Origin: a phage
Strand: one strand, 5' to 3'
DNA length: 64,000 nucleotides
Assembly (NCBI GenBank): GCA_037574385.1
Contig: GCA_037574385.1_4529.1
The notes beneath the pieces are model-generated. The model searched no databases. It saw nothing but the letters and a program-made list of their open reading frames with translations, and was not told the origin of the DNA. Shown here piece after piece: positions 5,865-52,647 of the stretch. Position numbers and translations under genes: made by a program. Position 1 is the stretch's first letter, and each line of letters opens with the position of its first letter.

Positions 5865-6497
5865 TCACAGTACGTTAGTTACAAGGGTAATGATTTCTTT
5901 GGACACATTAGGGAAGTCAATGTAAGTATATTTACCACCGATCTTAATCTTAACATCATTTTCAAGAGAAGTAAACAGCTTTGATTCAGCTTCTGACATG
6001 TTGTATGCAAAGATTCTAAGAGCGCCATCTCGTCGAATTTCAATTTGGCGAATACCTAGAACTCGTTTTGCAAATCGAACTTCCAAGTTACTACGGTTTT
6101 CACCAATTTCTTTAACTTCAACTTTATCTTTAATATTTTCAAAAACAAAGTTTGCTAATTCATGCATTTCAGGAGTAACTCCACGTGCTTTTCTAGTGTT
6201 ACGTTTCTGAAGAAGTTCTGGAGCATTTTCTTGAGCAAATAGGTCTGCAGCTTTTTGGATAATATCCATTGCTTCGCCGGTTGCCACAAGTCCATCACCG
6301 GATTTTTCGACTAAACCTTTCTTAATCAATACACCAATGTTAGAGTTAACAACTGATGCGTTGTATTCTGCTTCCAGAGCTTCACGGACATTGGCAGCAG
6401 TGGTGAAGTTGTTCTTAATGATATAAACCATTATTGCCGCAGTTTTTTCATTCAGAGCGTTTTCAGAAGCTTTGATGATGTAAGTAACTTTAGACAT
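5865..6497 (-). CDS. motA: middle-promoter transcriptional activator MotA
   Basis: 210 aa; MSKVTYIIKAS...NSNIGVLIKKGLVEKSGDGL...AQENAPELL matches T4 MotA. Confidence 0.9.
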   Translation of the reverse strand: MSKVTYIIKASENALNEKTAAIMVYIIKNNFTTAANVREALEAEYNASVVNSNIGVLIKKGLVEKSGDGLVATGEAMDIIQKAADLFAQENAPELLQKRNTRKARGVTPEMHELANFVFENIKDKVEVKEIGENRSNLEVRFAKRVLGIRQIEIRRDGALRIFAYNMSEAESKLFTSLENDVKIKIGGKYTYIDFPNVSKEIITLVTNVL

Positions 6498-11427: not shown

Positions 11428-13641
11428 TTATTTGGCCGCTTCCACGGCCTTCATGAATTTAACGATTTGAGCGACTTGTTCTTTAGAAAGAGTACCACGT
11501 CGTCCCATGTATTCTGACACAATATGATAATTGGTTTCGAATTCAATAACCATTTTATCATCATTATCGTAAGCATTATCTTTAAGCTTATCGAAAATTT
11601 TAGCACACAATTCTAACTTTTTATTCAGTTCTCTGTTAGTAGCACCTGAGAATCGATTCCATCCCCAACGATTATTTACCGTTGAGAGTTTTGCAAAATC
11701 TTTACTGATTTCTTTGTTTTTAGAGCTAAAATACTTACTAAGGAAGTTAAGCTCTTCGTTACGAGTAATATGATTCAAATAAGGCTGTGCTCTACGACTT
11801 GGTGATACATACTCATCATAATCCACTTTATCAATTAGCGTAATATAGTCATTAATTGATTTTTCGAACAAGCATTCTACTTCGCCAAGTTTACGAACTT
11901 TCTTAGCAATCTGTGGACGAACTACAGTGAACTCTTTAATACCTGACAAATCAGCAATACGGGTCAAGAAATTGGAGTCATAGTTCAACCAACCTTTATC
12001 TGCGTCAAGACATTCAGCATTAGAACGATTACGAACTATAGCATAACCTTGGATTTCATCTGCTTCACTTGCTGGAATAAAGAGGTCTTCTGATACCCAA
12101 ACATCGTTTTCATTCTTAAAGAATCGATGAGCACTTGGCGATTTAGGACGAGGCTCATTAGTCCGTTTCCTGACTTCAATCCATGGCTTAACGATTTGTA
12201 AAAGCTCTGAAGTCTTGTACATGTTAATGTTGTCGCCGTCAAAGATAACTTTAAGGCGTTCCAGAAGTTTCATTGCATCTTCGTCTGTAGGGTCAACGAA
12301 TAGTACGCTTTTACCAAAACCGCGTGGAACTTTACCGGTTAATTTAACCTCGTCTTTAGACATTTCAATTGAATTAAGAGCTCGCATTAATGGAACGCGT
12401 CCCTTAACGTCGTCAATAACAATTTCAACGTTTTTAATGTTAATGCCAATCAGGCTGTTAATTGAAATAGTTGATGATGAGCTACCACTTTCACGAATAC
12501 GACGAAGACGAGGGGATTCAACGATATCGTATACGACGCCAAGATTACACCACTCAGGCCCCATTTTAAAACGTTTATACAACTCAGAATAAGTTAGTTG
12601 TTCTTTAGAGTATTTCAGTGATTCAATATTAGACCCAGCCTTTTCCATGTATTTACGAGCGGTATAGCCAAGAGAATCAATTTCACGGAACACATGACGT
12701 GGGTATTTACAATCAATCCATTTCTTAGAATCTTCAGCGAACAATTTAGCATCGATTTCTGCAACGCGTTTATGGATATTTGCTACTGTACGTTTATCAA
12801 ACGACAATGCTTCACGAGACGGAGCTACATCTAGTTCACCCATAGGGAATTTAATATAAGCTGTAGTGCATCGTGTCATCATCCATGTTTGTTCTTTAAT
12901 AACACTTCCGATTGGATAAACAATACCACCATAAACAGCCATGATATTACCACGTTCACCCCGTGGAGCTTCCTTGGCCAAATATACATCGTCAAATTCT
13001 GGGAAGTATTTAATATCTTTAACACCACGAACTTCTGCTATATCACCTAAAGGACGCATAACATATGCAATTTCAGATGCGAACTTTTCAAAATCTTCTG
13101 GGTTAACCGGTACGACTACTTCTACACCCGTACGGTCATCAGGACCCATCTTATCTACAAAGGTTGGCTTAATTTGAGGACCCGTGTCATCTTGGTAGAT
13201 TACGTAACCACGAACTTCACCGTTGTGATAAGACGTAAGGTTAAACGTATCGGTATATGCTAGCGGAGCTTTAGAGCCGAGCCCGAATCCACCAATGAAA
13301 TCGTTGCTCGATGTTTTAGTTGAAGCAAAATATGAGTTATAGATTCCTGGCTCTTCGTCATTACCTCGAATAGTGAAATCACTCATACCAGGACCAAAGT
13401 CTCGAACTACAAAACGTGGGTCTAAACGACCTGGAGCCTGAACAATAAACTTATCAGTGCAACCGTTAAGAATTTGTCCATCAATACAGTTTGTGATTAA
13501 TTCACGTACACAAGCCAATTCTTTGTTTGTATAAAGGTCATTAGACAAAATCTTATAAACTTTGCTATTGCCTTGAATAGTGAATGCTGTACTCTTACCG
13601 CCTGAACCAATAATCGTTTCTTTAGCCGTTTCAATAATCAT
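11428..13641 (-). CDS. rIIA: rIIA protein
   Basis: 737 aa, N-terminal GHKL-ATPase-like region; size and position match T4 rIIA. Confidence 0.95.
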   Translation of the reverse strand: MIIETAKETIIGSGGKSTAFTIQGNSKVYKILSNDLYTNKELACVRELITNCIDGQILNGCTDKFIVQAPGRLDPRFVVRDFGPGMSDFTIRGNDEEPGIYNSYFASTKTSSNDFIGGFGLGSKAPLAYTDTFNLTSYHNGEVRGYVIYQDDTGPQIKPTFVDKMGPDDRTGVEVVVPVNPEDFEKFASEIAYVMRPLGDIAEVRGVKDIKYFPEFDDVYLAKEAPRGERGNIMAVYGGIVYPIGSVIKEQTWMMTRCTTAYIKFPMGELDVAPSREALSFDKRTVANIHKRVAEIDAKLFAEDSKKWIDCKYPRHVFREIDSLGYTARKYMEKAGSNIESLKYSKEQLTYSELYKRFKMGPEWCNLGVVYDIVESPRLRRIRESGSSSSTISINSLIGINIKNVEIVIDDVKGRVPLMRALNSIEMSKDEVKLTGKVPRGFGKSVLFVDPTDEDAMKLLERLKVIFDGDNINMYKTSELLQIVKPWIEVRKRTNEPRPKSPSAHRFFKNENDVWVSEDLFIPASEADEIQGYAIVRNRSNAECLDADKGWLNYDSNFLTRIADLSGIKEFTVVRPQIAKKVRKLGEVECLFEKSINDYITLIDKVDYDEYVSPSRRAQPYLNHITRNEELNFLSKYFSSKNKEISKDFAKLSTVNNRWGWNRFSGATNRELNKKLELCAKIFDKLKDNAYDNDDKMVIEFETNYHIVSEYMGRRGTLSKEQVAQIVKFMKAVEAAK

Positions 13642-13946: not shown

Positions 13947-15047
13947 TTACGCTGTGAAGATTTTATCCCACATTGCAACAACTGCATCTCGGTTATACTT
14001 CTTCCATACTGCTTCAGCACGTTTAACTCGAGCTTCGTATGTGTCAGTGAATTCTAATACAGCTTTTGTGTAAAGCGCAACTACTTCTTTCTTAGGAGTA
14101 GAGGAATCAATTTCTACACGCACAGTATCTGGGTCATATTCGAATGTCGCATGCGGATAATCCTTAAAAACTAACTGAATTACAGGGACACCTTTAGAAA
14201 TGGCTTCAATAGAACTATTCTCTACCGTACCTGTGTCAGGACACGTATTAATAAGTGCTTTAGCTGTTTTAAGACGTTCCATAATTTCACTGTGTGGAGC
14301 ATCAATAATAACAGGATACTTAGCCGGTGGTGCCCATTTACTAGGACAGTATCCTGCGCCATTTTCGCCTAGTGCTTTAATCGCTTCAAGAGCAACATCA
14401 GTACGACGCATTTTAGTGTCATAACGTTGTGCACTAATAATCAGATCAGTCGCCGGAAGAACTTCAGGTTTCTCATTCAAACAAATAACCGGATAATCTT
14501 CGGCTTCAAACAACGGATTTGCTCGCCAATAATCATAATCAATTTTGTCAGTCAGACCTGAAGTCATATAACAATATTTGCGTTCAAATTCACGGAAGGC
14601 TTTAGTAGGAGCATAACTCTTACCACCGTTCTTATGAATTTGAATAGTCTGGTCCCAAATTTGAACAATGCCACGAGATACCGGCTCAAACGGTGTTGCC
14701 ATAAAATTCTTATGAACTTTAGAGAGACCTGCGTCTTTAATTGCCTGAACGGTTAGTTTAGTCGGTTCCATTGTAACAACGAAATCGTACTCATTAATGC
14801 CGGCTAGTTCAACAATCTTACGAGCCATAGTATAACTCATACCTAGACTGAATTTAGTCAGATGACCAACAGGATGATGATTAACCTTCCAATCACCAAA
14901 CGTGTCATTATCAAAGCCGATATAATCAATATCAGCACCGATGGACACAAGATATTTCAACACATTTAAATGTACTGCTTCAAGACCACCTTGTACACGT
15001 TCTGGGTTAAACGGGACTGCGCGAGATGGGATAAACATAACTTTCAT
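13947..15047 (-). CDS. GT-B fold glycosyltransferase (candidate DNA sugar transferase)
   Basis: 366 aa; N-terminal Rossmann segment and C-terminal ENSSIEAISKGVPVIQ resembling the GT4 E-x7-E donor-binding motif; occupies the rIIA-39 gap. Confidence 0.55.
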   Translation of the reverse strand: MKVMFIPSRAVPFNPERVQGGLEAVHLNVLKYLVSIGADIDYIGFDNDTFGDWKVNHHPVGHLTKFSLGMSYTMARKIVELAGINEYDFVVTMEPTKLTVQAIKDAGLSKVHKNFMATPFEPVSRGIVQIWDQTIQIHKNGGKSYAPTKAFREFERKYCYMTSGLTDKIDYDYWRANPLFEAEDYPVICLNEKPEVLPATDLIISAQRYDTKMRRTDVALEAIKALGENGAGYCPSKWAPPAKYPVIIDAPHSEIMERLKTAKALINTCPDTGTVENSSIEAISKGVPVIQLVFKDYPHATFEYDPDTVRVEIDSSTPKKEVVALYTKAVLEFTDTYEARVKRAEAVWKKYNRDAVVAMWDKIFTA

Positions 15048-16907: not shown

Positions 16908-16956
16908 GTTGTCTCCTCGTTATGAAGGTATTCTATCATCCGAAATCTAAAGCAAA

Positions 16957-19288: not shown

Positions 19289-19774
19289 TTAAGCTTTACG
19301 AGGAGACACATAACGAGTGATTTCGGATTCTTTAACAACTCTGAAGTCACCTAAGAATACGATATTGTATAACTTTTCACCATCTTCAACCCATTGGTCA
19401 CTAATGAAGCCACACATAGTATCAGTTTTGCTTGGATAACCGTATTCATCGATGAAGTCAAATTCTTTATCAGTCTGGAATTCAACGCCTTTGCAAAGGG
19501 CCCATTTGAACTGTACATTATGCTCTGTGGATTCAACTTTTTCTCTTGAAGCAAAAGCACTACTCACAGGCGTTTCCAAGAACTTTGCACGAACATAAGC
19601 AAATTTGGTTTCCTGTGTCCCAAAACTAGGAATAATACGAACCTTTACCTCAGAATCTTCATCTTTAACGCCTTCTTTAAGTTGAATACTTACAACTTCG
19701 ACCAATTTTCCTGCGGCTTTAGAACGAGATTTGTTAGATACGCGAACGATTTCACCAATAATACCAAGATTCAT
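19289..19774 (-). CDS. hypothetical protein, tandem paralog 2 (start moved to MNLGIIGEIV)
   Basis: Track N-terminus (MLYIQGWMEYNEF) is the translated promoter repeat; internal Met is the likely start. Shares the C-terminal motif. Confidence 0.6.
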   Translation of the reverse strand: MNLGIIGEIVRVSNKSRSKAAGKLVEVVSIQLKEGVKDEDSEVKVRIIPSFGTQETKFAYVRAKFLETPVSSAFASREKVESTEHNVQFKWALCKGVEFQTDKEFDFIDEYGYPSKTDTMCGFISDQWVEDGEKLYNIVFLGDFRVVKESEITRYVSPRKA

Positions 19775-30114: not shown

Positions 30115-30363
30115 TTATTCTTTTTCGCGAATAATAATTACTTGTTGAGGCTGCTGAGCAGATTTCTTTTCGGCAACGATAGACCAAATTAAAGTTCCAA
30201 TCCAACCAACCATCGTCCAGTTAAAGAGCAAAGATACAAAGAAGATTGCTGTTGTGCTTTTTGTGCCACGAATAAGTGCGATTACCCAAGGCAACATGTA
30301 AATGATGATTGAACCAATACCTGCGATTAAAACTGCTACTGAACTAGCTACGAATAATTCCAT
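30115..30363 (-). CDS. small membrane protein (82 aa, two TM segments)
   Basis: Hydrophobic ORF in operon orientation. Confidence 0.5.
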   Translation of the reverse strand: MELFVASSVAVLIAGIGSIIIYMLPWVIALIRGTKSTTAIFFVSLLFNWTMVGWIGTLIWSIVAEKKSAQQPQQVIIIREKE

Positions 30364-30424
30364 GTTAATTTCCTCTTGATTTGTTATGTTTATAGTATCT
30401 TGTTTTAACTTTGGCGTAAACCAA

Positions 30425-30793
30425 TTAATTAAATTTGTTTAAACGTTCAATACACTGGACGTAGTTATTCGCGATTTGTTTCTGGGTAGGCTCTTTACCA
30501 GTTGTTTCAATATAGCGAATGAATGCGATTTCAGTAGCCTGTAAGCAATGTTCTTTAACGCGTTGTTCTTTTGTCAATGCTACAGTATCAGAATCACGAT
30601 AACGTTGAGCATGGGCATCAGCTTGAATCATTCGATTACCTACAGTAACCGGGTCTTCCACTTCAACTTTAGGTTGGTTGTACTGTTTAACATTCGGGTT
30701 ATAAATCAATTGGCCAACATTATTAGGGATAAAGCCGTGAGCACCACATCCAGTTAATCCGAATACCATTGCTAAAGCGATTAATTTTTTCAT
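30425..30793 (-). CDS. putative lipoprotein (122 aa)
   Basis: Signal peptide plus lipobox MKKLIALAMVFGLTGC. Confidence 0.55.
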   Translation of the reverse strand: MKKLIALAMVFGLTGCGAHGFIPNNVGQLIYNPNVKQYNQPKVEVEDPVTVGNRMIQADAHAQRYRDSDTVALTKEQRVKEHCLQATEIAFIRYIETTGKEPTQKQIANNYVQCIERLNKFN

Positions 30794-34943: not shown

Positions 34944-35492
34944 TTAACGAGCCCATTTGATAATTTCTGTAATCAAATTATTACGTTCGCTTGCATTAAA
35001 TCCTATAACTTTGTTAGCACCATCATGATTAAGTAATTGATACGTTTGGATTTTGTTATGAATTGCAAACTCTTCAAAATGTGAAATGACTGTATTAAAA
35101 CCGAATGAAGACAAAGTAATAAGGTCGTCTTCAAAACTTTCAGTCATTTCGTTACGTGTTAAAATAATTGTGAACACATCATGGTTTTGGCAAAGACGAA
35201 TATAATCCTGTTCATAAACGTCAAGAACCGAGTCCGCATCTTGTCGAATACGTCCATAAACCCAGTTACTAATATATCCACGGTCTAATAGATAAATCTT
35301 AGTAGGGTCTAAATAATTCAACATCGTTTCGAAACAGCCAACTTCATTTCGAGACTTAACATCGAAACGCCCATCAACTGTTCGTTTAGGGAAATCAATC
35401 TTTACATATCTTTCACTAATTTCCATTATGTCATTAATGAAAGTTGTTTTACCAGCATTATCCGGTCCGTCTACTAAAATAATTTTAGCCAT
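34944..35492 (-). CDS. P-loop kinase (NMP-kinase/gluconokinase-like fold), substrate unknown
   Basis: 182 aa; Walker A LVDGPDNAGKTT at residues 5-16 and a later hhhhD Walker B-like segment. Confidence 0.55.
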   Translation of the reverse strand: MAKIILVDGPDNAGKTTFINDIMEISERYVKIDFPKRTVDGRFDVKSRNEVGCFETMLNYLDPTKIYLLDRGYISNWVYGRIRQDADSVLDVYEQDYIRLCQNHDVFTIILTRNEMTESFEDDLITLSSFGFNTVISHFEEFAIHNKIQTYQLLNHDGANKVIGFNASERNNLITEIIKWAR

Positions 35493-35493
35493 T

Positions 35494-36393
35494 TTATTCC
35501 TCGATTACGACATCTTCGTATTTAGGTATATTATACGGTGAAGAAATTAAAGCATTAAAGTAGATGAACTCACCAAGACCTGGATGGAATACTTCTTCAG
35601 GATTTTCGAAATATTGAATCTTCGGACGTCCTTTAAGAATTTGATAGTACTCAGTTTTAGTTGGTTTAAAAATTCGAATCAGCGCTTCTTCAGGGTACTT
35701 ATTTCTGTCGAAGCTAATATTTGGATCTGTTATATAAAGCGGTTGGCCTAATTGAATTGCACATTCAACCACTTGTTCAAAACGATAGCACGGGTCACTA
35801 ATTCGAAATGGATGAAAAATACCATCTAGATGAATAGGAGCCAAATCACCTACAAGACGCTGCATGATGGAAGGACGTATAACTTTCTGCGTTACGATAA
35901 TCTTATTACCATCTGCACCTGCGTTAACCAGCACTTCCTTTTGACGTTCATTCAACACAGTAGTTTGAAGTGAACGATTAACCGACAACATATCGGTTTT
36001 TAAGAATTCATCAATATAAAAGCGTGGTTTATTAGGGTCTGTAGTGATATTGAAATTGAATTCCACATCAAAAGCGCCATCATATCCAGTGATATCTGTG
36101 ATTAGAAAATCACAATCATAATAAGCAATTAATGAATCAACCACAAATTCATTTTCAGACCAGAAATATTTACGAGTGTTATACGCGTTATCTTTATACC
36201 ATAATGGAACAAACTTAAATTCCGGGAAAAGACGTTCACATTCTTTAATATCAGATGCATTACGTGGATATGTAATCACATCACCCGGATTAGCACGGTG
36301 CAAATGAAGTTGGAAGTTGCCATCCTTAAGGATAGCATACTGTCCAGTTTCATAAGACCGCATACTCAAGATTGGTACGCGGAAAATAGCCAT
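35494..36393 (-). CDS. hypothetical protein (299 aa) at the position of T4 beta-gt; candidate transferase
   Basis: No motif recognised; placed between uvsX and the hydroxymethylase where T4 encodes beta-glucosyltransferase. Confidence 0.5.
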   Translation of the reverse strand: MAIFRVPILSMRSYETGQYAILKDGNFQLHLHRANPGDVITYPRNASDIKECERLFPEFKFVPLWYKDNAYNTRKYFWSENEFVVDSLIAYYDCDFLITDITGYDGAFDVEFNFNITTDPNKPRFYIDEFLKTDMLSVNRSLQTTVLNERQKEVLVNAGADGNKIIVTQKVIRPSIMQRLVGDLAPIHLDGIFHPFRISDPCYRFEQVVECAIQLGQPLYITDPNISFDRNKYPEEALIRIFKPTKTEYYQILKGRPKIQYFENPEEVFHPGLGEFIYFNALISSPYNIPKYEDVVIEE

Positions 36394-37109
36394 TAGTCAA
36401 GGAATCCTTTAACATAATCAAAATCACGTTCAAACACATGGGCACTTACCATGGTATGAGTATAATCACCAACTTCTACACCGCATTCGTTAGCGATATA
36501 ATGAAGTAATTTTCCTTGGAGATAAAAATCCAACTGCATAACAACAGCACAGTTCTGAGAACGCATATGGCAGTGCGTATAAAGCTTACCATCACGAATA
36601 TAATAAGTAACTGAGTCAGTACATGGATATTCAAGCGTTTCGTCTGAATCAAGCAAAGCCTGATCAGAACTTTCTAGAATTTGGAACACAACTCTTCGGG
36701 AGTTAGGCTTCTCTTTAAGTTCTTTTAGAAGAGCTGGTAATTGGGCCGCAATGCGAGGACCATAGAAAGTGTTGAAGTTCGCCGGCAAAACATCTGATTT
36801 TGGTTTAGAAATAAATTTAGCGACATTAGGATATGCCTTAAACGCTTCTTCTGCGTTGGTACCACCAGAAATCATAAACTTCCAGAAGTCTTCGGCATAT
36901 TCATAAGAGATGCGGTTAATACGTGGGTCGGTCATTTTGAATGATGATGGAGTGTCAACAACTACTGTCATAGACCCAATTTCATTACAACGTCCAATAC
37001 GAGAATCAGTTACGAATTCCGGGTTTTCTAAAATTTCACGATTGACTGCTTTAAATGCGGTTTGAAAATCTGCGGCTTTGATATATTTCATTGTGTTATG
37101 TTTTCCCAT
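36393..37109 (-). CDS. thymidylate-synthase-family pyrimidine nucleotide hydroxymethylase (divergent gp42-like)
   Basis: 238 aa; SRRVVFQILES, EYPCTDSVTYYIRDGKL and VSAHVFERDF align with TS / dCMP-hydroxymethylase motifs (catalytic Cys in PCT). Confidence 0.6.
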   Translation of the reverse strand: MGKHNTMKYIKAADFQTAFKAVNREILENPEFVTDSRIGRCNEIGSMTVVVDTPSSFKMTDPRINRISYEYAEDFWKFMISGGTNAEEAFKAYPNVAKFISKPKSDVLPANFNTFYGPRIAAQLPALLKELKEKPNSRRVVFQILESSDQALLDSDETLEYPCTDSVTYYIRDGKLYTHCHMRSQNCAVVMQLDFYLQGKLLHYIANECGVEVGDYTHTMVSAHVFERDFDYVKGFLD

Positions 37110-37151: not shown

Positions 37152-37391
37152 TTATTTGAATTTCTTGACAATGTTGATATAACGTAAAGCTTCAGCATCG
37201 ATACTTCCAAGGACACTATGAAGAAATGCATCAGCGTAGTATTCCAATTGAATAGGTTCTTTAATCACTTTAGCCGCTTTGGTTTCAAACAGGCCCATCA
37301 GGGCCTTTTTAAGAATTTGTTCGTTGCTGTTAATTTTCGTAGTCAAAATCTCTTCATTAAGTTGGTGGTTAAAAGTTTTTCTAGAAATCAT
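37152..37391 (-). CDS. hypothetical protein (79 aa)
   Basis: ORF within the cassette. Confidence 0.45.
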   Translation of the reverse strand: MISRKTFNHQLNEEILTTKINSNEQILKKALMGLFETKAAKVIKEPIQLEYYADAFLHSVLGSIDAEALRYINIVKKFK

Positions 37392-38563
37392 TCCGGGTAC
37401 CTCAAAGCGTCATCAGAGTTAGTTATATCAATAATAGATATAGAGTTTTCTGCTAACCCATTTTTAGATAATTGACGTTTATAATATCTTTCACAATATG
37501 TACACGTTGACCCACAGATTTCATTAGCACAATCAAAATCAGGATGTCTGAACCACCTTTTTTCTAAAAAGCCATCTAACAAAGAGGTTTCAATATTTAC
37601 TGTATGTGAAAACTCAGTCTCATTTTCAAGAGTGAAAATAGTCTCTAAAGGCTTCCACAGTTCTAACAAATTACCTTCAAACTTTTCAGAAGCGTATGCT
37701 TCAAGAACTTTCAAAATGTAGTCTGTGCTACCTGTACGTCCTGAAACTTTGAATTGAGTGATACCAATATCATTATAAAGTTTCAAATCTTGAGGACGAA
37801 CAAAACGAGTTCTCAACCAGTTAAATGGGTCTGTATCACGAGCTTTAATACAGTGCTGCATTGGATATCCATTTAAGGATTTAGCATCATCAGCTGTAAC
37901 ATCAGTACTATGGAAAATATAGCAAGAGTCACGATAGCTACAATGTGTTGTATACCCTTTACCAGCATTAGAACAGAACTCATTTACAAGAACTTCAAAT
38001 ATTATATTGTTCTTATTGCAAAACTCTGCTGCACGCTTCAGGAAAGAAACTGAACGGTTCTTATGAATTCCACAGCAGACCTTTTTGATATTATATTGGT
38101 CATGCAAGTATTTGATTTGAGTTACGGCATCGACATGTAGAATTGTTGAAACTTCAATCTCAATATCTTTATTGACTTCACGAACAATTTCCATAACAAC
38201 AGGGTTAGCGATAGTAATACGCCATACGCCTATTGACCAAAGATACTGAACATAATCCTGAATAGCTTTCTTCTTCCACTCAACTAGTTCTCTTTTTGAA
38301 CCAGGATTTATCGTGTTGAGTGTATAGTTAAAGCAAATACCTAATTCGTTACAACGTTTAACGTAGTCTTCTAACATCTTTTTGTCAACGTCAGGAAGCC
38401 TAAAATCAGGTCTGGCTGCTACAAAAGCCATTTCTCTTGTAGAGCCATATACTTCGTTTATCAAGCTATTAGGATAGGTTTTATTGAGCTCTACGATTTT
38501 ATCAAGAAGAGCTAAATCAAAATTCGTTCCGATTTTAAAAGTATTCATTTTTTTGCATCTCAC
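37388..38563 (-). CDS. Cys-rich hypothetical protein (391 aa), possibly metal/Fe-S binding
   Basis: Several conserved-looking Cys; C-terminal C-x4-C-x3-C-x2-C (CANEICGSTCTYC). No family assignable by eye. Confidence 0.5.
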   Translation of the reverse strand: MRCKKMNTFKIGTNFDLALLDKIVELNKTYPNSLINEVYGSTREMAFVAARPDFRLPDVDKKMLEDYVKRCNELGICFNYTLNTINPGSKRELVEWKKKAIQDYVQYLWSIGVWRITIANPVVMEIVREVNKDIEIEVSTILHVDAVTQIKYLHDQYNIKKVCCGIHKNRSVSFLKRAAEFCNKNNIIFEVLVNEFCSNAGKGYTTHCSYRDSCYIFHSTDVTADDAKSLNGYPMQHCIKARDTDPFNWLRTRFVRPQDLKLYNDIGITQFKVSGRTGSTDYILKVLEAYASEKFEGNLLELWKPLETIFTLENETEFSHTVNIETSLLDGFLEKRWFRHPDFDCANEICGSTCTYCERYYKRQLSKNGLAENSISIIDITNSDDALRYPE

Positions 38564-38604: not shown

Positions 38605-39006
38605 TTATAGATTCGGTTTATATGATTTAAATGTTTCGAATTCGCCTTTATTCATAAGAGCTTTGAATTCGTCAGGACGCATAGCTTTGTCGTCGATAAT
38701 CCAATCATATACTGGTTTATGTGTTAGCAAATTATGGTACTTCAAGCCAATGTTTGCCAAGTTCTGAATCAGACTTGGGAGAATGTCAATTGCTATACGT
38801 CCAGGACCTACTGACTTCATACCACGAGCAGTGTAAAGCGTTATGGTATGCCCTGCATCATACAGGGCATTAATGGCAGACACCATTTCGACGTCTGGTT
38901 TGAAGTTCACGTAATCGCGATTGTTATTCCATTCTGTGATGCAATCATCGACATCAAAACAAAGATTAAGCATGTTTTCTACACGGTGCATTAGATTTGT
39001 TCCCAT
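38605..39006 (-). CDS. small HAD-superfamily phosphatase
   Basis: 133 aa; motif I FDVDDCIT near N-terminus; later T/S and K/D motifs consistent with a capless HAD phosphatase. Confidence 0.55.
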   Translation of the reverse strand: MGTNLMHRVENMLNLCFDVDDCITEWNNNRDYVNFKPDVEMVSAINALYDAGHTITLYTARGMKSVGPGRIAIDILPSLIQNLANIGLKYHNLLTHKPVYDWIIDDKAMRPDEFKALMNKGEFETFKSYKPNL

Positions 39007-40676
39007 TGATGAGTGATATCGCCACCGATTGGACGATAAGAAACACCAGTTTCTTTATCAGTTAGTACCCATTTACCAGGATTTTTTGTAATCAGAGTAG
39101 CCGTTACAGGTTCTGCTACGTCATAACTAATAGAGCCGTCTTGAAGTACACGGCCCATGTTACGTAATTGCTTAGTTAGAAGTTCCATACCTTTATAATA
39201 TGCGGCTACCGCTTTAAGTGGATTATTCTTGAAATAACCACCTAATGCAATCCAGATAATTGCCACTGCCAAATGATGATACTCGTTAAACGAACTCATC
39301 TTTCCATATTTGTAAACTAATGGATTGATGTTAATAGTCACATTACAAGTTGTTTCATCAATAATAAACTGGCCCCAGGTCGGATTAGCGTTGAATTCAT
39401 CATAACCTGAAACAGCATAAAGCACTTTAGCTTCATCATACAATTTTGGCCCGTAAATCTTGGTTTCACCAAAATATCCACGAGGGTCGATAAACTTGAC
39501 TTCGCCGTTATCAGTAATCATAGTATTACTGAAGTTCGGGTCACCGTGAATAACAGAGTACTGTCCCTGAGAACGGTTATGATAACGAATAAGGTGTTCT
39601 AAAGCTTGTTTCAGCATTGGCTTCAGACGTCCAATCTTAGTGTAGTTCACGTGTGTGATTTTACCAAATGAATCAATCAATGGCTGAATGCTTTCACAAC
39701 GATCAATAACTTTCGTATAGAACTCTTTAGTGAAATCACGACGAACAGTTTCAGGACTTACAAAATAAATGTCTGTGTTAAATTTCAGTGCATCTAAAAT
39801 TGCATCAATAATTTGTGGACGAGCAAGACTTGATTTGGATTTAATATATTCAAATGCTGGCTTACCTTTAATGCGTTCCATTTCAAAGTTATTTTCATTA
39901 ACAGAAACTAACTGAGGAACTGAATCTGATTTCACTTTCAAATACCATGAAATCTCATCTTTTTGAAGAGCTCGACCTTGTTCAGTTAATGCGAATTTAG
40001 TTACAGTTTCTTCACCAATTTCAACCGCATTAAAACTACGATTAAGTTCACGAACTTCATGAGCTTTTTCAAGTTTAGGCATATCACCAAGGTCGATGAT
40101 ATTCATAAGCTCTGATTTATTGAATGCGCCGCTGTAAAGGAATTCTACAAAATCACGTCCTTTGCAGTATTCGTGAATTTCCTCATCAGTAGAACCCATG
40201 TAGAATTCCCAGTCTTTGAACTGATAAATTCCTACAACATTACCGCCTGTTGCACCTACATTAGTGATATTTTCACCATCGAAATTATATCGACATTCAT
40301 CACCTTTAACATAGATTGCGTTAACATTCCAAGACCATGAACCAAAATCAGGAATAATATCACACCAGTTAACAACTACGTTATGGCCGTCTAAATCTTT
40401 GTGTAATTTAGCAAGAGCATAAGCAGAACCATACGCTTCATCAACTGTACGAATAGTCACATTGAACCCTTCTTGCTCACAATAAGCTCGAACAGTTTCA
40501 GCAAATTTTGAATGAACTACTACAATAATTTCATCTGCGCCAAGGTCAGAATAAATTGTATACAAATTGCTCAGAATAGTGTCTTGTTTATAGTTCACAA
40601 GAACTTTTGGAATATGGTGAGTAATTGGATATAAACGAGTTGCCAATCCAGCACCAAGAATAACAGCTTTTTTCAT
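38991..40676 (-). CDS. bifunctional sugar-1-phosphate nucleotidyltransferase / APH-type anomeric sugar kinase
   Basis: 561 aa; N-terminal ILGAGLATRLYP (G-x-G-x-R nucleotidyltransferase signature); C-terminal HGDPNFSNTMI...KFIDPRG matching the APH/choline-kinase catalytic loop. Confidence 0.65.
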   Translation of the reverse strand: MKKAVILGAGLATRLYPITHHIPKVLVNYKQDTILSNLYTIYSDLGADEIIVVVHSKFAETVRAYCEQEGFNVTIRTVDEAYGSAYALAKLHKDLDGHNVVVNWCDIIPDFGSWSWNVNAIYVKGDECRYNFDGENITNVGATGGNVVGIYQFKDWEFYMGSTDEEIHEYCKGRDFVEFLYSGAFNKSELMNIIDLGDMPKLEKAHEVRELNRSFNAVEIGEETVTKFALTEQGRALQKDEISWYLKVKSDSVPQLVSVNENNFEMERIKGKPAFEYIKSKSSLARPQIIDAILDALKFNTDIYFVSPETVRRDFTKEFYTKVIDRCESIQPLIDSFGKITHVNYTKIGRLKPMLKQALEHLIRYHNRSQGQYSVIHGDPNFSNTMITDNGEVKFIDPRGYFGETKIYGPKLYDEAKVLYAVSGYDEFNANPTWGQFIIDETTCNVTININPLVYKYGKMSSFNEYHHLAVAIIWIALGGYFKNNPLKAVAAYYKGMELLTKQLRNMGRVLQDGSISYDVAEPVTATLITKNPGKWVLTDKETGVSYRPIGGDITHQWEQI

Positions 40677-40713
40677 GTTGAAGTCCTCATTGGTAAGTAG
40701 GTGTATTGTACAC

Positions 40714-40860
40714 TATTCTAGTTAAAGCATTCATACTTTGCCTGTAGACCAATCATAATCCATCCAATTACAAGTGTTGGAATCATTACTGGAGCCGTTA
40801 AGCTCCAGTAGATAGTCATGACAAGCATCAATAGTAAAAGTCCTATTGTTATTGCTTTCA
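40714..40860 (-). CDS. possible small membrane protein (~48 aa, below threshold); positional candidate for Imm-like protein
   Basis: Hand translation MKAITIGLLLLMLVMTIYWSLTAPVMIPTLVIGWIMIGLQAKYECFN; ATG overlaps the upstream stop (ATGA). Confidence 0.35.
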
Positions 40861-41493
40861 TTGTTCGCCTCGTAACATGGCACCTAGTGCACCGCCAGGG
40901 TGGAACTTAAGGAAATCATTAGAGGTAAATCCGCGTTCAGACGAAAGGTTGATAGCGAACGTATCGATAAGCGCTAACAACAATGTAGTGGACATAGTCG
41001 GAGCTAAAGAGTTCTCGTCAACTTCTACCGCGATACCGGTACAGAATGTATAATCAAAAAGAGCTTCGTATTCTTGTGGAATGTCAGGGTTACAATGTAA
41101 CAGAATCTGTTTAACCTGAGGACGAATCATACGAAGATGTTTAGCAACACCTATCATTTCTTCAGTCTTACCAGAACGACTGATGTGAACTAATACATCA
41201 TTAGGTGCAATGAATCCTGCATCACCGTGAGAATAATGCCCAGTGTTCAAATACATGCTAGGAATACCTAGTGAAGCAAAAGTCTCGGAAGCTTTAGTTG
41301 CGATATTAGCGTTCTTACCAACACCTGTAATAATTACACGACTTTCATAATTACTCAGTCCTGGGCGTCGAAGAGTTTCTAGAATAGCATTATAACGAGC
41401 AGGGTTTTGACTAATTACTTTGGCCATAGCGGCCAAAGAAGAAGCTTGTTTTATGATTGCGTCAATAGCGATAGTGATTGGTGTAGTTTTCAT
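40858..41493 (-). CDS. SIS-domain sugar-phosphate isomerase, D-arabinose-5-phosphate isomerase (KdsD/GutQ)-like
   Basis: 211 aa; ITGVGKNANIATKASETFASLGIPS matches the SIS phosphosugar-binding motif; single SIS domain without CBS domains. Confidence 0.65.
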   Translation of the reverse strand: MKTTPITIAIDAIIKQASSLAAMAKVISQNPARYNAILETLRRPGLSNYESRVIITGVGKNANIATKASETFASLGIPSMYLNTGHYSHGDAGFIAPNDVLVHISRSGKTEEMIGVAKHLRMIRPQVKQILLHCNPDIPQEYEALFDYTFCTGIAVEVDENSLAPTMSTTLLLALIDTFAINLSSERGFTSNDFLKFHPGGALGAMLRGEQ

Positions 41494-49633: not shown

Positions 49634-49868
49634 CCTCGATACATGCTTCAGCCATTTTAAGAATAGAGCCAGGAGTATCGTTGTCCATTATATTAAAGCT
49701 AAATTCAATAGCCCAGTCGGTGCAGACATGAACTGCTTTAACTTCATTGCCTTCAACGCGTAATGGCTCAATCCAATACTTGATGGTGTTCTCGAATCCA
49801 TCATCATCTTTAACGTCTATTTCAACTTCAAGCCCGAGCCCAGCATTGTTAAATTCATCTAAAGTCAT
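49611..49868 (-). CDS. 46.2-like small protein (85 aa)
   Basis: ORF between 47 and 46. Confidence 0.5.
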   Translation of the reverse strand: MTLDEFNNAGLGLEVEIDVKDDDGFENTIKYWIEPLRVEGNEVKAVHVCTDWAIEFSFNIMDNDTPGSILKMAEACIEDAYNDED

Positions 49869-50884
49869 TGTGTTGCCTCAATATAAAGTTCGTTGGAATA
49901 TTTGACCAGCGCTTCTCTGTCTTCGTCTGAGATATCTGGAATCGCGTCAATATATTCTTTAATGATATCTTGAAGTGATTTAATCTCGATTTCCTGGTCG
50001 TCATCAGATTCAACACTGTTATCAACTTTAGAAACCATACGAAGAGAGTGAACTACTTTTTCAAGTTCAGATTCAAACTTAGTCAACTCTGAATCAATTT
50101 CTGATACTATAACACGTACGGCTAGATTAGTATAATCAGAATAATTGATTTTGCCTTTAAACGGATAAGTGATTCGTCGATGCCATGTCGTTTCATTGGG
50201 AATAAATTCCATACGTTCAACGTCGGTGTCAAATACCCAGAATCCGCGAGGATCATTCTCGTCACCTGCAGTAAGGGTCCATGGTGTCCCAATATATTTG
50301 ACGTTAGCAGCTTCAGAGATTGTGTGGAAGTGGCCGGACCAGACTTGTTTATAGGTCTTTAAGAAATCAGGTTCAAGCCCATGAGACTTCATTCCTTTAT
50401 AGAAATAAAAGCCGTTCAGTTCCCAGTGCCCAACACAATACGCAGCAGAAGAAGTCTTGATATGCTCTAAGATTTCACCTGTATTTTCTTCACACATCCA
50501 TGGAACGATATCAATCAGACATCCGTCAAAATCTACAGTAGTTGGATGTTCATAAATAGTAAAGTTTTCAAATTGAGTTAACAATTCAGAAACAGTGTTA
50601 GGTGTTATTGTATTCTTAAACGCCATGTCATGGTTTCCTATCGTGACATGAACGTGAATGCCTGCCTTAGAAATCATATCAACTATTTCACGATTGAATT
50701 CCATCGTACGATGTGTAATTGCTTTACGGACGTCGAACCAATCACCGTACTGAATCCAAGTTTTAATCCCGTGTTTCTTAGAGTATTCAATTGCTTGACG
50801 AATACCATCACGTTGAATATCTTGGACCCATGGGTCGTCCTGTTTAACGCCGATATGGAAGTCACCTAAATGTAAAATTTTCAT
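49865..50884 (-). CDS. 47: recombination nuclease gp47 (Mre11/SbcD-like); start at MKILHLGDFH
   Basis: Calcineurin-like phosphoesterase motifs (LHLGDFHIG, GNHD, GHFH); track ORF extends 27 nt further upstream (to 50911). Confidence 0.9.
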   Translation of the reverse strand: MKILHLGDFHIGVKQDDPWVQDIQRDGIRQAIEYSKKHGIKTWIQYGDWFDVRKAITHRTMEFNREIVDMISKAGIHVHVTIGNHDMAFKNTITPNTVSELLTQFENFTIYEHPTTVDFDGCLIDIVPWMCEENTGEILEHIKTSSAAYCVGHWELNGFYFYKGMKSHGLEPDFLKTYKQVWSGHFHTISEAANVKYIGTPWTLTAGDENDPRGFWVFDTDVERMEFIPNETTWHRRITYPFKGKINYSDYTNLAVRVIVSEIDSELTKFESELEKVVHSLRMVSKVDNSVESDDDQEIEIKSLQDIIKEYIDAIPDISDEDREALVKYSNELYIEATQ

Positions 50885-51024
50885 AAGTCTAACGCCGTTA
50901 TCGCAATGCAAAATAAAACCACAGAAATTAATCCATCTGGGGTACTAAAGAAACCTATCCAACACGCCCTAGTGAATAGATAGAAGGCTAATATCAATAT
51001 AGTCACACCTAAAAATATAATCAT
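50881..51024 (-). CDS. possible small membrane protein (~47 aa, below threshold)
   Basis: Hand translation MIIFLGVTILILAFYLFTRACWIGFFSTPDGLISVVLFCIAITALDL; stop overlaps gp47 ATG (ATGA). Confidence 0.35.
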   Translation of the reverse strand: MIIFLGVTILILAFYLFTRACWIGFFSTPDGLISVVLFCIAITALDL

Positions 51025-51071
51025 ATGTTTTCCTCATTAGTTGGTTCATTTTATCATCCAGAATATAAAGC

Positions 51072-51100
51072 AAAAAAAAAGGAAGCACTAGGCTTCCTTT
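51072..51100 (-). terminator. rho-independent terminator at the alpha-gt locus
   Basis: GGAAGC/GCTTCC stem with 5-nt loop; minus strand followed by U9. Confidence 0.65.
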
Positions 51101-51260
51101 CCAATTAACACACCGTACAGAGGTTCGCGATTAGACGTGAACTTGATAGGCTTATACGTAATAGTACCTTCATTTTCTGCTTTAATACGAGCGGCTTCAA
51201 ATTGAAGTATCATCTCATTTTTGTCAGATTTAATCTTATCAAAATCCATCGAATTCGTCA
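51087..51260 (-). CDS. possible small protein (~57 aa, below threshold) ending inside the terminator loop
   Basis: GAGG 8 nt upstream of ATG; hand translation MTNSMDFDKIKSDKNEMILQFEAARIKAENEGTITYKPIKFTSNREPLYGVLIGKEA. Confidence 0.35.
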
Positions 51261-51410
51261 TTCATAAAACCTCTTAAACTTTTTCGTATTCGTAATTCAT
51301 AAGCTTAAAAATCTGGGTGTTCGTCTTTCATTAGCCACCTGTCCACGTTATCATCGTTTCCACCATTTCTTAACTTGAAATGAATCAACCCTGCGTTCAG
51401 CTTCAGACGT

Positions 51411-51734
51411 TTAAACTTTGTTTGAACTAGCGCCATTAATGATGTCCTCAATAGCCTGACGAGTAGTAACCCACTGGATTTTAATTAACTTGTCATTATA
51501 CGGTTGTCGTAGAATATCCCGAGATTTCTTAATAGCATATTCATAAGCTTCGAAGTTGTTTTGAATTGCTGCTTCTTGAGCATGAGCATAAAGTCGATTT
51601 AGTTCGAAACGATTCTTTTTAAGAATCTTTTCGGATTTTTTACGTGCTTCAGCTTCATTTTTCTTTTGTATTTCTTGTAGCATTTTAGCTACTGCATCTT
51701 CTGCTTCTTTATTTTCAATAATCTCGGTAGTCAT
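51411..51734 (-). CDS. hypothetical protein (107 aa), 55-downstream
   Basis: Charged, helical ORF in operon orientation. Confidence 0.5.
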   Translation of the reverse strand: MTTEIIENKEAEDAVAKMLQEIQKKNEAEARKKSEKILKKNRFELNRLYAHAQEAAIQNNFEAYEYAIKKSRDILRQPYNDKLIKIQWVTTRQAIEDIINGASSNKV

Positions 51735-51735
51735 A

Positions 51736-51945
51736 TTATCTCATTAAATTAAAATAAAAACGTCCGTCCTCTTCAATACAGAACTCGTACTCAACTGGAG
51801 TCCCATTTATTGAAAATGACACGTCATGTGGGTTCAAAGGGTCGATGTCAAAATTAATTTTAAATTCTCGACCCAACAGTTTTACCAAATAAGGGATTGC
51901 TTCGTCAAAAGGTTCTTCTAAGTAGTTAGAGATGTCAATTGTCAT
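51736..51945 (-). CDS. hypothetical small protein downstream of 55 (start at internal Met)
   Basis: Track ORF overlaps the 55 coding end; internal [17 protein letters not shown]... start removes the overlap. Confidence 0.45.
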
Positions 51946-52510
51946 CCTCATATAAAAAATCCAAACTAGGCGAATCGCTAACAACTTCCTTCTTTTCAGC
52001 CCCAGGAGCTTTATAAGCGGATTCTTCATAATGCGTCATTTTATCGTAGATGTCTTGAATAAACGTTTCATCTACCAACGCTACCATATCATCGTCATGA
52101 CTGTCGTAGACATTATGAACGAAGTAACTATATTTCTTTGCAACTTCCTTACGTTCTTTTTTGATACGTTGGACAAAAGCATTAAAACAAGCTCGAGTTA
52201 TGTATGCATGTGGGTTATTGTACTTAGTTTCGTCGAAATTATGAAGTCCCTTAATAGAGGCTTCAATCCCATCTGCAATCATCTCCTGCTTCCAAGACTG
52301 GGTATACCCTGAAAAGTTGAAACGTTTGGACAGGCCTTCGGCGATAAGCATAATTGCTAAACCGATGGTATCATTCTGACGAATAATTTTGTTTGGGTCT
52401 TTATTATTTAAGAGCTCCTTTTTCCACTCGATTATAGCAGCGAGAAGCTCTTTATTATTCACATAGTTATTTTTAGGTTTTTGTTCAGTCATAAGTACCT
52501 CTTGGCTCAA
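51935..52510 (-). CDS. 55: late-transcription sigma factor gp55
   Basis: ...[148 protein letters not shown] matches T4 gp55. Confidence 0.95.
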
Positions 52511-52647
52511 TTCATAGGTCTATTATATCATAATATTTAGAGACCTATCTTAAAGCACGAGATACTATCAAAGATACGTAACTTTCATAAAGTTGACGAC
52601 TTAAAATTCACCAAACTTTTCTTCGGTTATAGCAATTCTAGATAGTT

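Follow-up and report, generated by a model that had tools for sequence, protein, structure and literature searches.

Bacteriophage T4 carries the alpha-glucosyltransferase gene, a-gt, between genes 47 and 55. The reference genome of RB69, in contrast, has been annotated with an alpha-gt-less slot at this place since 2003, and BlastP comparisons found RB69 to be devoid of T4-type glucosyltransferases (Thomas et al. 2018, PMC6024577). Its modified base is 5-hydroxycytosine, not hydroxymethylcytosine, as determined by LC-MS and NMR (PMC13326640), and the formation of arabinosyl-5-hydroxycytosine has been attributed to a set of RB69 genes (Lee et al. 2026, PMC13326640). For one of the products, gp48, the enzyme activity was demonstrated (PMC13326640), and two others, gp3 and gp46:47, are reported to adopt the GT-B fold, the fold class of the a-gt and b-gt enzymes (PMC6024577; PMC13326640). 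The absence of a-gt, b-gt, and ba-gt from RB69-type phages and their replacement by arabinose modification have been published together with chemistry and enzymology (2018, 2025, 2026), and the alpha-gt-less slot of arabinose-type phages is known and already in print (Thomas 2018; Lee 2026). Another described system is that of PeSL and PmSL elements, composites of a stem-loop terminator and a promoter. They occur in a hyperplastic region at the borders of single-gene indels, and the Mot box version, PmSL, is known from vibriophage nt-1 (Arbiol 2010, PMC2839356; Comeau 2014, PMC4122927). RB69 is mentioned in neither of these two papers, and a description of the a-gt slot in terms of PeSL or PmSL was not found.

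In this study, we analyzed a 64,000-nucleotide stretch of phage DNA (GenBank assembly GCA_037574385.1, contig GCA_037574385.1_4529.1), hereafter called the window. It is approximately 97 to 98% identical at the nucleotide level to Mosigvirus records, including Mizar and ESh27, and by this measure its source is an RB69-like Mosigvirus, a T4-type phage. The slot is oriented entirely on the minus strand and contains homologs of gene 47, 47.1, a-gt.2, a broken a-gt.3, a-gt.4, a-gt.5, and gene 55, in this order (Table 1). The original prediction had pointed out that T4 encodes a-gt between 47 and 55, which the T4 genome confirms, and that nothing of glycosyltransferase size occupies the interval here. 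Indeed, no such ORF was found between genes 47 and 55, and tblastn searches of the window with T4 a-gt, b-gt, and mobB returned nothing (all E > 0.2). The span assigned to the slot, 50881 to 51260, does cover 47.1, the hairpin, and a-gt.2, but it is not the whole interval, and the a-gt.3 remnant had been missed. The slot of the window is the usual alpha-gt-less version of a variable region in T4-type genomes. An Rfam scan of positions 49800 to 52600 gave a single chance miRNA match far under threshold, a repeat search of the slot revealed nothing meaningful, and the late promoter motif TATAAATA was absent from 50800 to 52600.

Table 1. Features of the 47-55 slot and of the arabinose modification genes in the window
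Feature	Position	Strand	Basis
gp3 homolog	13947-15047		99.2% RB69 gp3
gp46:47 homolog, single 299-aa ORF	35494-36393		98-99% RB69 ORFs 46 + 47
gp48 homolog, ThyA-like 5-hydroxy-dCMP synthase	36393-37109		99.2% RB69 gp48; Pfam Thymidylat_synt; only 25% T4 gp42
UDP-arabinose supply, third gene	38605-39006		97-99% RB69
UDP-arabinose supply, NTP_transferase and kinase-like matches	38991-40676		97-99% RB69
UDP-arabinose supply, SIS-domain gene	40858-41493		97-99% RB69
Gene 47, SbcD-like recombination nuclease subunit, 339 aa	49865..50884	-	76% aa T4 gp47; 100% RB69 gp47; Pfam Metallophos
47.1 homolog, 47 aa, two predicted transmembrane segments	50881..51024	-	76% aa T4 gp47.1; phrog_6693 full-length, E=1.6e-27
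Mosaic patch vs RB69 (47.1, promoter, hairpin, a-gt.2 allele, a-gt.3/a-gt.2 spacer)	50885..51352	.	Identity to RB69
Predicted MotA-type middle promoter look-alike	51048..51072	-	Exact consensus match
Intrinsic-terminator-like hairpin GGAAAGGAAGC-CUAGU-GCUUCCUUUUU and U-run	51073..51102	-	Terminator scan and fold
a-gt.2 homolog, 57 aa, DUF5486, Dhakavirus/Gaprivervirus-type allele	51088..51261	-	Pfam E=6.5e-19; phrog_2140
a-gt.3 remnant, 43-aa ORF	51305..51436	-	Alignment with Mizar, ATK47, RPN187
a-gt.4 homolog, 107 aa, DUF2654	51411..51734	-	58% T4 a-gt.4; 100% RB69; Pfam E=1e-27
a-gt.5 homolog, 69-71 aa, DUF5491	51736..51951	-	47% T4 a-gt.5; 100% RB69; Pfam
Gene 55, late sigma factor, 185 aa	51935..52492	-	91% T4 gp55
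Region nearly identical to T4 P55 middle-promoter region (GTGCTTTAAGATAGGTCT...TATAAT)	52515..52560, approximate	-	T4 sequence around mapped start 40180

The small genes of the slot are conserved prereplicative genes without known function. What had been described as a 47-aa membrane ORF is the 47.1 homolog, which contains two hydrophobic segments according to its Kyte-Doolittle profile and whose end shares 4 nt (ATGA) with the start of gene 47. This gene is also found in Mizar, ESh27, Dhakavirus CLB_P2, T4, and RB27 and is missing in RB69, ATK47, RPN187, and VR25. The idea that its presence tracks with a-gt was rejected, as Dhakavirus and the window phage have 47.1 without a-gt. Only 63 bp separate it from a-gt.2, the product of which is 57% identical to that of T4 and only 56% identical to that of RB69. 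Of two further ORFs predicted to be about 100 aa long, the 107-aa one is a-gt.4. The other, a 97-aa ORF at 51736 to 52029, was discarded as an over-extension into gene 55; the true gene is a-gt.5, which starts at 51945 or 51951, the alignment with T4 a-gt.5 beginning at the latter position. Depending on the start, a-gt.5 and the 3' end of gene 55 share 11 to 17 nt.

Gene a-gt.3 has been disrupted by a private 121-bp internal deletion and a frameshift, with the junction GGGTT at 51391 to 51387. The resulting ORF consists of 16 native residues followed by 27 that are out of frame. T4 a-gt.3 matches the remnant in two different frames, phrog_1648 covers it only over profile positions 1 to 19 of 67, and the junction had no occurrence in IMG/VR. 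Across the mosaic patch, identity to RB69 drops from 97 to 100% to about 50 to 60%, and there is a 141-bp insertion. The patch is present at 95 to 99% identity in only four records. Beyond these, the best matches share about 83 to 90% of nucleotides and include CLB_P2, a confirmed Dhakavirus; overall, the patch is closest to Dhakavirus and Gaprivervirus.

As originally noted, the 57-aa ORF (a-gt.2) ends within the loop of a hairpin. Its TAG stop codon (51090 to 51088) is contained in the loop CUAGU, and the 5' arm encodes the final residues GKEA. The stem-loop (51102 to 51076) has 10 to 11 bp, a 5-nt loop, and a folding energy of -12.6 kcal/mol, and the fold is more stable than those of 199 out of 200 shuffled sequences (z = -2.9). 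It is followed directly by a run of nine U residues, so that the arrangement of an intrinsic terminator, a stable stem-loop and then a U-run on the transcribed strand, is present. Six sequence-distinct alleles from five genera all have a hairpin at this position, each of them perfectly paired. Their stems differ by compensatory changes, with two to three different pair types at seven of the first eight stem positions. These pairs were tabulated from individual folds, as the MAFFT alignment of the cassette had the stem arms out of register. ATK47 has an ARNold terminator annotated at the matching site, and Mineola has one behind a-gt; these are predictions too. Judging from these sequence features, we infer that the hairpin of the window terminates transcription. 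It had been called a strong terminator. The hairpin, its U-run, and its conserved position bear this out, but the attribute "strong" is unsupported: the stem contains only four G-C pairs, and a generic terminator scan alone showed no enrichment in this region (2 found versus 1.8 expected). Its loop also differs from the UUCG tetraloop in the alleles of RB69, T4, and KMB19.

Adjacent to the hairpin is a predicted middle promoter. The consensus of such promoters is (a/t)3TGCTTtA-N11-13-TAtaaT (PMC2988021; PMC1524935), and the window contains TTTTGCTTTA-N12-TAAAAT at 51075 to 51048, in which the Mot box TGCTTTA (51072 to 51066) is separated by a 12-nt spacer from the -10 element TAAAAT (51053 to 51048). 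The Mot box pattern occurs eight times in the window compared to 1.0 expected, and the window encodes both MotA (5865 to 6497; Pfam MotA_activ and MotCF) and AsiA (3731 to 4003; Pfam AsiA). A predicted start near 51041 would yield a leader of approximately 17 nt with the Shine-Dalgarno sequence GAGG ahead of 47.1. The corresponding cassettes of T4 agree to within 0 to 1 nt with the published starts of P47 (36576) and PmobB (38682), two experimentally mapped middle promoters (Hinton 2010, PMC2988021). By this analogy, the promoter is expected to fire in the window phage. The P55-like region is probably where those transcripts arise that cover 55 and a-gt.5 to a-gt.2 and reach as far as the hairpin. 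A transcript from this promoter would cross a-gt.5 to a-gt.2 and then be stopped or stabilized by the hairpin and U-run, and the MotA/AsiA-dependent middle promoter right after the hairpin would restart transcription into 47.1, 47, 46.2, 46.1, and 46.

In addition to the slot, we evaluated the genes for DNA modification. The full RB69 set is present in the window at 97 to 99% amino acid identity: gp3, gp45, gp46:47, gp48, gp50, gp51, gp52:53, and arabinose-5-P isomerase. For the gp3 homolog, the PDB contains two near-identical entries, 9iqz and 9ir0, named GT4-like glycosyltransferase (E=2.6e-248 for 9iqz). A PDB sequence search with the gp46:47 homolog gave no match, Pfam contains no family for either arabinosyltransferase, and a single-sequence AlphaFold2 model of the gp46:47 homolog was unusable (pLDDT 36.5); the GT-B assignment rests on RB69 gp46:47, which is 98 to 99% identical and has already been modeled (PMC13326640). 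Supply of UDP-arabinose is represented by the arabinose-5-P isomerase, a phosphatase, and a kinase/nucleotidyltransferase fusion. Moreover, the "b-gt slot" upstream of uvsX is filled: the ThyA-like gp48 comes first and the glycosyltransferase gp46:47 next, mirroring the T4 order 42, b-gt, uvsX. According to the published scheme, gp48 would form 5-hydroxy-dCMP, gp51, gp52:53, and the arabinose-5-P isomerase would provide the UDP-arabinose donor, and the GT-B enzymes gp46:47 and gp3 would attach one and then a second arabinose. Very probably, DNA of the window phage is glycosylated by this RB69 pathway, the slot is the ordinary alpha-gt-less form, and the hairpin-promoter cassette ends its run of small genes. 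The original prediction that unrelated genes carry out the glycosylation is borne out by the full arabinose set, but "unrelated" applies at the BLAST level only, since the GT-B fold is in common. This reading holds because a-gt, b-gt, and ba-gt are without match and the RB69 pathway is complete in the window. Across the Tevenvirinae genera sampled, the a-gt slot is commonly empty. By itself, an empty slot is no evidence for alternative glycosylation, or weak evidence at most, since phages of Karamvirus, Gaprivervirus, and Dhakavirus also lack a-gt there. Karamvirus relatives glucosylate with b-gt or ba-gt encoded elsewhere.

The window represents only about 38% of a genome of approximately 169 kb, and an a-gt, b-gt, or ba-gt homolog beyond it would mean that the phage is glucosylated after all. 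We consider this very unlikely. In the window, tblastn with a-gt of T4 and RB27 gave a best E value of 2.6, and neither T4 b-gt (351 aa) nor RB27 ba-gt (280 aa) had a match under E=0.3. The glucosyltransferase search that had been proposed was run on the whole genome of ESh27 (168,955 bp), the nearest complete relative. There, b-gt and T2-type ba-gt had no match at E<=1 by tblastn, in agreement with the predicted absence of b-gt, and mobB was likewise absent. The sole match to T4 a-gt, at 19376 to 19555 (E=0.042, 69 aa), lies inside a 200-aa ORF and involves only a-gt residues 18 to 86. For the rest of the genome, absence rests on the relatives ESh27 and RB69. Homologs of a-gt were detected in 657 of 50,697 phage records, essentially Tequatrovirus and Klebsiella Jiaodavirus-like phages; only 10 of the 657 fall under 60% identity, yet about 150 Mosigvirus records exist. 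Furthermore, the arabinose pathway in the window is not only complete but intact. It is likewise extremely improbable that the small ORFs arose by chance in a noncoding spacer left by deletion of alpha-gt. They are short (47 to 107 aa) and of no known function, but the intact ones match curated families over their full length (E values of 1e-13 to 1e-37), the slot proteins are 47 to 76% identical to their T4 counterparts with T4-style overlapping starts and stops retained, and a-gt.4 was kept in all six T4-like genomes compared (Nolan 2006).

As an alternative to termination, the hairpin could chiefly be an mRNA 3'-end stabilizer or processing barrier, with most polymerase reading through into 47.1 and 47, like the early-transcript extension of T4. 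Middle genes of T4 are expressed by early-transcript read-through as well as from middle promoters (PMC2988021). In most hairpin alleles, the loop is a C(UUCG)G tetraloop, which is very stable, and the U-run after the T4 a-gt.2 hairpin is poor (UAUAUUGC). This tetraloop was reportedly described by Tuerk and colleagues in 1988 as typical of T4 intercistronic hairpins. However, the uninterrupted U-run behind the window stem fits an intrinsic terminator, and we regard a predominantly stabilizing function as rather unlikely. Both roles are compatible. A single hairpin followed by TGCTTTA-N11-12-TAnAAT is located at the a-gt.2>47 junction of the window, Mizar, RB69, ATK47, RPN187, VR25, and CLB_P2, and KMB19 has a variant form. 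Phages without alpha-gt have one cassette; in T4, RB27, and Klebsiella phage Mineola, a cassette flanks a-gt on either side. In Tequatrovirus and Jiaodavirus, alpha-gt is a single-gene module between two cassettes, to which T4 adds the homing-endonuclease gene mobB. A stem-loop with a promoter is found at indel borders between related phages, as in PeSL/PmSL, and the cassettes may have mediated gain or loss of alpha-gt. We tentatively propose that a-gt is a single-gene module in two "PmSL" cassettes, that 51048 to 51102 is the empty site, that modification genes of the slot were gained, lost, and exchanged between genera by cassette recombination, and that the Dhakavirus-like patch is a trace of such an exchange. 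Secondary loss, in which an ancestral a-gt was deleted by recombination between its two flanking cassettes and was not gained by Tequatrovirus and Jiaodavirus, is possible but somewhat doubtful. That two genera with a-gt of only 66% amino acid identity have the gene in exactly the same slot and between the same pair of cassettes suggests old residency, and direct cassette repeats would permit deletion (PeSL model, PMC2839356). On the other hand, Mosigvirus, Gaprivervirus, Karamvirus, and Dhakavirus are all single-cassette, and annotations of cyanophage and Vi1-like relatives place 47 directly next to 55, which favors a small ancestral slot. Promoter-core pairwise similarity singles out neither T4 cassette as the ortholog of the one in the window, and cassette similarity does not polarize gain versus loss.

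By these results, the window belongs firmly to Mosigvirus, and its gene set for arabinosyl-5-hydroxycytosine is intact. Together with the middle promoter, the predicted terminator forms a conserved unit that corresponds to T4 P47 and PmobB and marks the borders of the a-gt module; this unit may account for the coming and going of the module. In comparison with known systems, RB69 (NC_004928, RB69p066-p071) resembles the window in having 47, a-gt.2, a-gt.3, a-gt.4, a-gt.5, and 55 without a-gt and a hairpin and Mot box cassette ahead of gene 47. The window differs from it by the presence of 47.1, a distinct a-gt.2 allele with a different hairpin that holds the stop codon in its loop, and the broken a-gt.3. 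T4 shares homologs of 47.1, a-gt.2, a-gt.4, a-gt.5, 47, and 55 (47 to 91% amino acid identity) and has a cassette after a-gt.2 and before 47.1. Unlike the window, which has one cassette and neither gene, T4 contains a-gt (400 aa) and mobB between two cassettes. In T4, 47.1 is not on the P47 transcript because the -10 element of P47 overlaps the 47.1 ATG, whereas in the window the predicted leader with its Shine-Dalgarno sequence precedes 47.1. The cassette of the window is like PeSL/PmSL in layout. Dhakavirus and Gaprivervirus phages (CLB_P2 and VR25) also lack a-gt and match the patch at 83 to 90% nucleotide identity; CLB_P2 shares 47.1 and the a-gt.2 stop codon in the hairpin loop, and VR25 has an identical hairpin sequence. 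In contrast to these two phages, in which a-gt.3 is intact, the window carries the patch between flanking genes that are RB69-type rather than Dhakavirus-type.

The interval between genes 47 and 55, where T4 carries the alpha-glucosyltransferase gene (a-gt), was mapped using the ORF listing, the raw sequence, and tblastn of T4 proteins from NC_000866. All genes in this region are located on the minus strand. The original prediction that the slot holds only small ORFs was confirmed, with small corrections, by ORF listing, tblastn, Pfam, and PHROGs, and every one of these ORFs was assigned to a PHROGs family of unknown function. Of the two ORFs of approximately 100 aa that had been described, the 107-aa one is a-gt.4, whereas the 97-aa one is a-gt.5 over-extended upstream into gene 55.

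Genes of the 47-55 interval and homologs of RB69 arabinosylation genes in the window
Feature	Coordinates	Strand	Identity or family
Gene 47	49865-50884	minus	76% aa to T4
47.1 (47 aa, two hydrophobic segments)	50881-51024	minus	76% to T4
a-gt.2 (57 aa)	51088-51261	minus	Pfam DUF5486
a-gt.3 remnant	51305-51436	minus	
a-gt.4 (107 aa)	51411-51734	minus	DUF2654
a-gt.5 (69-71 aa)	51736-51945/51951	minus	DUF5491
Gene 55	51935-52492	minus	91% to T4
RB69 gp3 homolog	13947-15047		99.2%
RB69 gp45 homolog	34944-35492		98.4%
RB69 gp46:47 homolog (one 299-aa ORF)	35494-36393		98-99%
RB69 gp48 homolog	36393-37109		99.2%
RB69 gp50 homolog	37388-38563		99.0%
RB69 gp51 homolog	38605-39006		99.2%
RB69 gp52:53 homolog (one 561-aa ORF)	38991-40676		97-98%
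Arabinose-5-P isomerase homolog (RB69)	40858-41493		97.6%

A 121-bp deletion in a-gt.3, between GGGTT pentamers that form a 5-bp direct repeat in intact relatives, leaves a frameshifted 43-aa ORF. Since the junction (GGGTT at 51391-51387, minus strand) was not found in any phage-collection record or IMG/VR contig, it may represent either a deletion private to this genome or an error in the assembly. Homologs of a-gt.2 are labeled "prohead core protein protease" or "head maturation protease" in some records (e.g., phage UPEC07) and in phrog_17354; these labels seem to reflect annotation drift, given that the protein has 57 aa and belongs to DUF5486.

The slot and 14 kb between genes 61 and 43 share 97 to 98% nucleotide identity with Mosigvirus genomes, the best matches being Mizar and ESh27. 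In the RB69 reference genome, the annotated order is 47, a-gt.2, a-gt.3, a-gt.4, a-gt.5, 55, without a-gt, so a slot lacking this gene has been documented since the deposition of that genome. Small ORFs alone also separate 47 and 55 in Mosigvirus RPN187, Gaprivervirus VR25, Karamvirus KMB19, and Dhakavirus CLB_P2, and the two genes are annotated as direct neighbors in cyanophage and Vi1-like relatives. Because other genera are also empty at this position and the Karamvirus relatives CC31, KMB20, and PG7 still carry beta-glucosyltransferase (b-gt) and beta-alpha-glucosyltransferase (ba-gt) genes adjoining gene 42, an empty slot is not diagnostic by itself. The feature is real and was rightly described and interpreted, but it is ordinary and already known.

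Neither T4 a-gt, b-gt, and mobB (a homing-endonuclease gene of the T4 slot) nor the T2-type ba-gt of RB27 had a match within the window. The tblastn check was extended to ESh27, which among full-length relatives sharing this slot is the closest; in its complete, concatenated genome, b-gt and ba-gt had no match at E<=1. The sole a-gt match (19376-19555; E=0.042) aligned the N-terminal Rossmann region with a 200-aa hypothetical protein at 27.5% identity over 69 aa and is probably due to chance; the protein is too short for a glycosyltransferase. Apart from this weak match, the predicted absence of both T4 genes held in the window and in ESh27. RB69 likewise lacks T4-type glucosyltransferases by BlastP (Thomas et al. 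2018, PMC6024577). Homologs of a-gt occurred in 657 of 50,697 phage records, comprising 504 Tequatrovirus at >=80% identity and 143 Klebsiella Jiaodavirus-like phages at ~66%, with only 10 below 60%; b-gt homologs were present in 126 records.

The proposal that DNA glycosylation is performed by unrelated genes was right in substance and already published. RB69 DNA carries mono- and di-arabinosyl-5-hydroxycytosine in place of cytosines; the modified base is 5-hydroxycytosine, not hmC, gp48 makes 5-hydroxy-dCMP, and arabinosyl transfer is proposed to be carried out first by gp46:47 and then by gp3 (Lee et al. 2026, PMC13326640). Homologs of these genes are present in the window (see table), and Pfam, where models exist, concurs (thymidylate-synthase fold, U32 peptidase, nucleotidyltransferase and kinase-like, SIS). 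PDB 9iqz/9ir0, entries named as a GT4-like glycosyltransferase, are nearly identical to the gp3 homolog. The term "unrelated" is accurate only in terms of BLAST similarity, since the arabinosyltransferases are reported to have the GT-B fold, like a-gt and b-gt (PMC6024577, PMC13326640). The T4 position 42 - b-gt - uvsX is occupied by gp48 - gp46:47 - gp45 - uvsX (34944-37109), with the ThyA-like gp48 homolog followed by that of gp46:47 upstream of uvsX; given this synteny, the "beta-gt slot" is not empty but holds the first arabinosyltransferase. The imm and imm.1 genes are located apart from it, at 30118-30793. The counterparts of RB69 ORFs 46/47 and 52/53 each form one continuous ORF here, which supports the published view that sequencing errors caused the splits in the RB69 reference sequence.

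The stretch on which the original prediction centered is a mosaic patch. While gp47, a-gt.4, and a-gt.5 match their RB69 counterparts at 100% identity, a-gt.2 shares only 56% aa identity, and RB69 lacks 47.1. The non-RB69-type patch (~50885-51352; 47.1, promoter, hairpin, and a-gt.2 allele) is common to only four records at 95 to 99%, the Mosigvirus phages Mizar, ESh27, TH12, and CCU7. The best matches beyond these, including the confirmed Dhakavirus CLB_P2, reach ~83 to 90% nucleotide identity.

As predicted, the 57-aa ORF ends within a hairpin: the a-gt.2 TAG stop lies in the loop of GGAAAGGAAGC-CUAGU-GCUUCCUUUUU (51102-51076), which is followed by further U. Its position in the loop is a property of this allele. 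CLB_P2 also has the stop in the loop and VR25 has an identical hairpin, whereas in RB69 and T4 the stop is at the stem base. The "strong terminator" is present as hairpin and U-run, but it is rather half of a composite cassette. Within the 63-bp spacer between a-gt.2 and 47.1, the U-run is directly followed by TGCTTTA, 12 nt, and TAAAAT (51072-51048), a putative Mot-box middle promoter. This pattern has 8 matches in the window versus 1.0 expected, a number reached by none of the shuffles, and the window encodes MotA (5865-6497) and AsiA (3731-4003). Further exact matches on the minus strand (16930-16954, 35530-35554, 39399-39424, and 40705-40729) lie just upstream of gene 39, gp45/uvsX (inside the gp46:47 3' end), and gp52:53; MotA control of arabinose-pathway genes is suggested.

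The experimentally identified T4 middle promoters P47 and PmobB (P-alpha-gt.1) start at 36576 and 38682 (Hinton 2010, PMC2988021); in the two T4 cassettes, the -10 elements lie 7 and 6 nt upstream of these sites. The window cassette is thus the counterpart of mapped MotA-dependent promoters. Transcription is predicted to start near 51041, so that 47.1 would be preceded by a leader of ~17 nt containing the Shine-Dalgarno sequence GAGG. Upstream of gene 55, the sequence is almost identical to that of the T4 P55 region. One unit would likely run from P55 through 55, a-gt.5, a-gt.4, the a-gt.3 remnant, and a-gt.2 to the hairpin, and another from the P47-like promoter through 47.1, 47, 46.2, 46.1, and 46; we infer that, in this phage, transcription terminates at the hairpin and the promoters are active. 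In T4, the P47 -10 hexamer overlaps the annotated 47.1 ATG (12583-12590 of the sequence compared) and the start lies inside 47.1, so that T4 47.1, unlike that of the window, is not translatable from this transcript.

A hairpin followed by a Mot box occurs at the a-gt.2>47 junction in Mizar, RB69, ATK47, RPN187, VR25, and CLB_P2, and in looser form in KMB19. Six hairpin alleles differ in sequence yet are all perfectly paired, with two or three Watson-Crick pair types at seven of stem positions 1 to 8. The T-run between hairpin and Mot box comprises 6 nt in RB69 and VR25, 7 in Mizar, 9 in the window (51073-51081), and 10 in RPN187, which alters hairpin-to-promoter spacing. T4 has two cassettes, one between a-gt.2 and mobB and the other between a-gt and 47.1, and two are also found in the mobB-less T2-type phage RB27 and in Klebsiella phage Mineola. 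The Mineola a-gt annotation seems to begin 54 nt upstream of the true start (2147-2200 of the sequence compared), the extension engulfing the hairpin and promoter; a T4-like N terminus (MKINILMARGLEGCG) begins at ~2201.

The a-gt gene lies between two cassettes in all three a-gt-bearing arrangements examined, whereas those without it have one. It is plausible that cassettes bound an a-gt module, which would add to the mechanistic reading of the "terminator" an account of the module's limits. Promoter-core similarity did not single out either T4 cassette as the counterpart of the single window cassette, so gain in Tequatrovirus/Jiaodavirus and loss elsewhere both stand. In studies that did not treat RB69 or, apparently, the 47-55 slot, PeSL/PmSL "mobile regulatory cassettes" are described at the edges of indels in hyperplastic regions of T4-type genomes (Arbiol 2010, PMC2839356; Comeau 2014, PMC4122927), and the cassettes described here have this same architecture.
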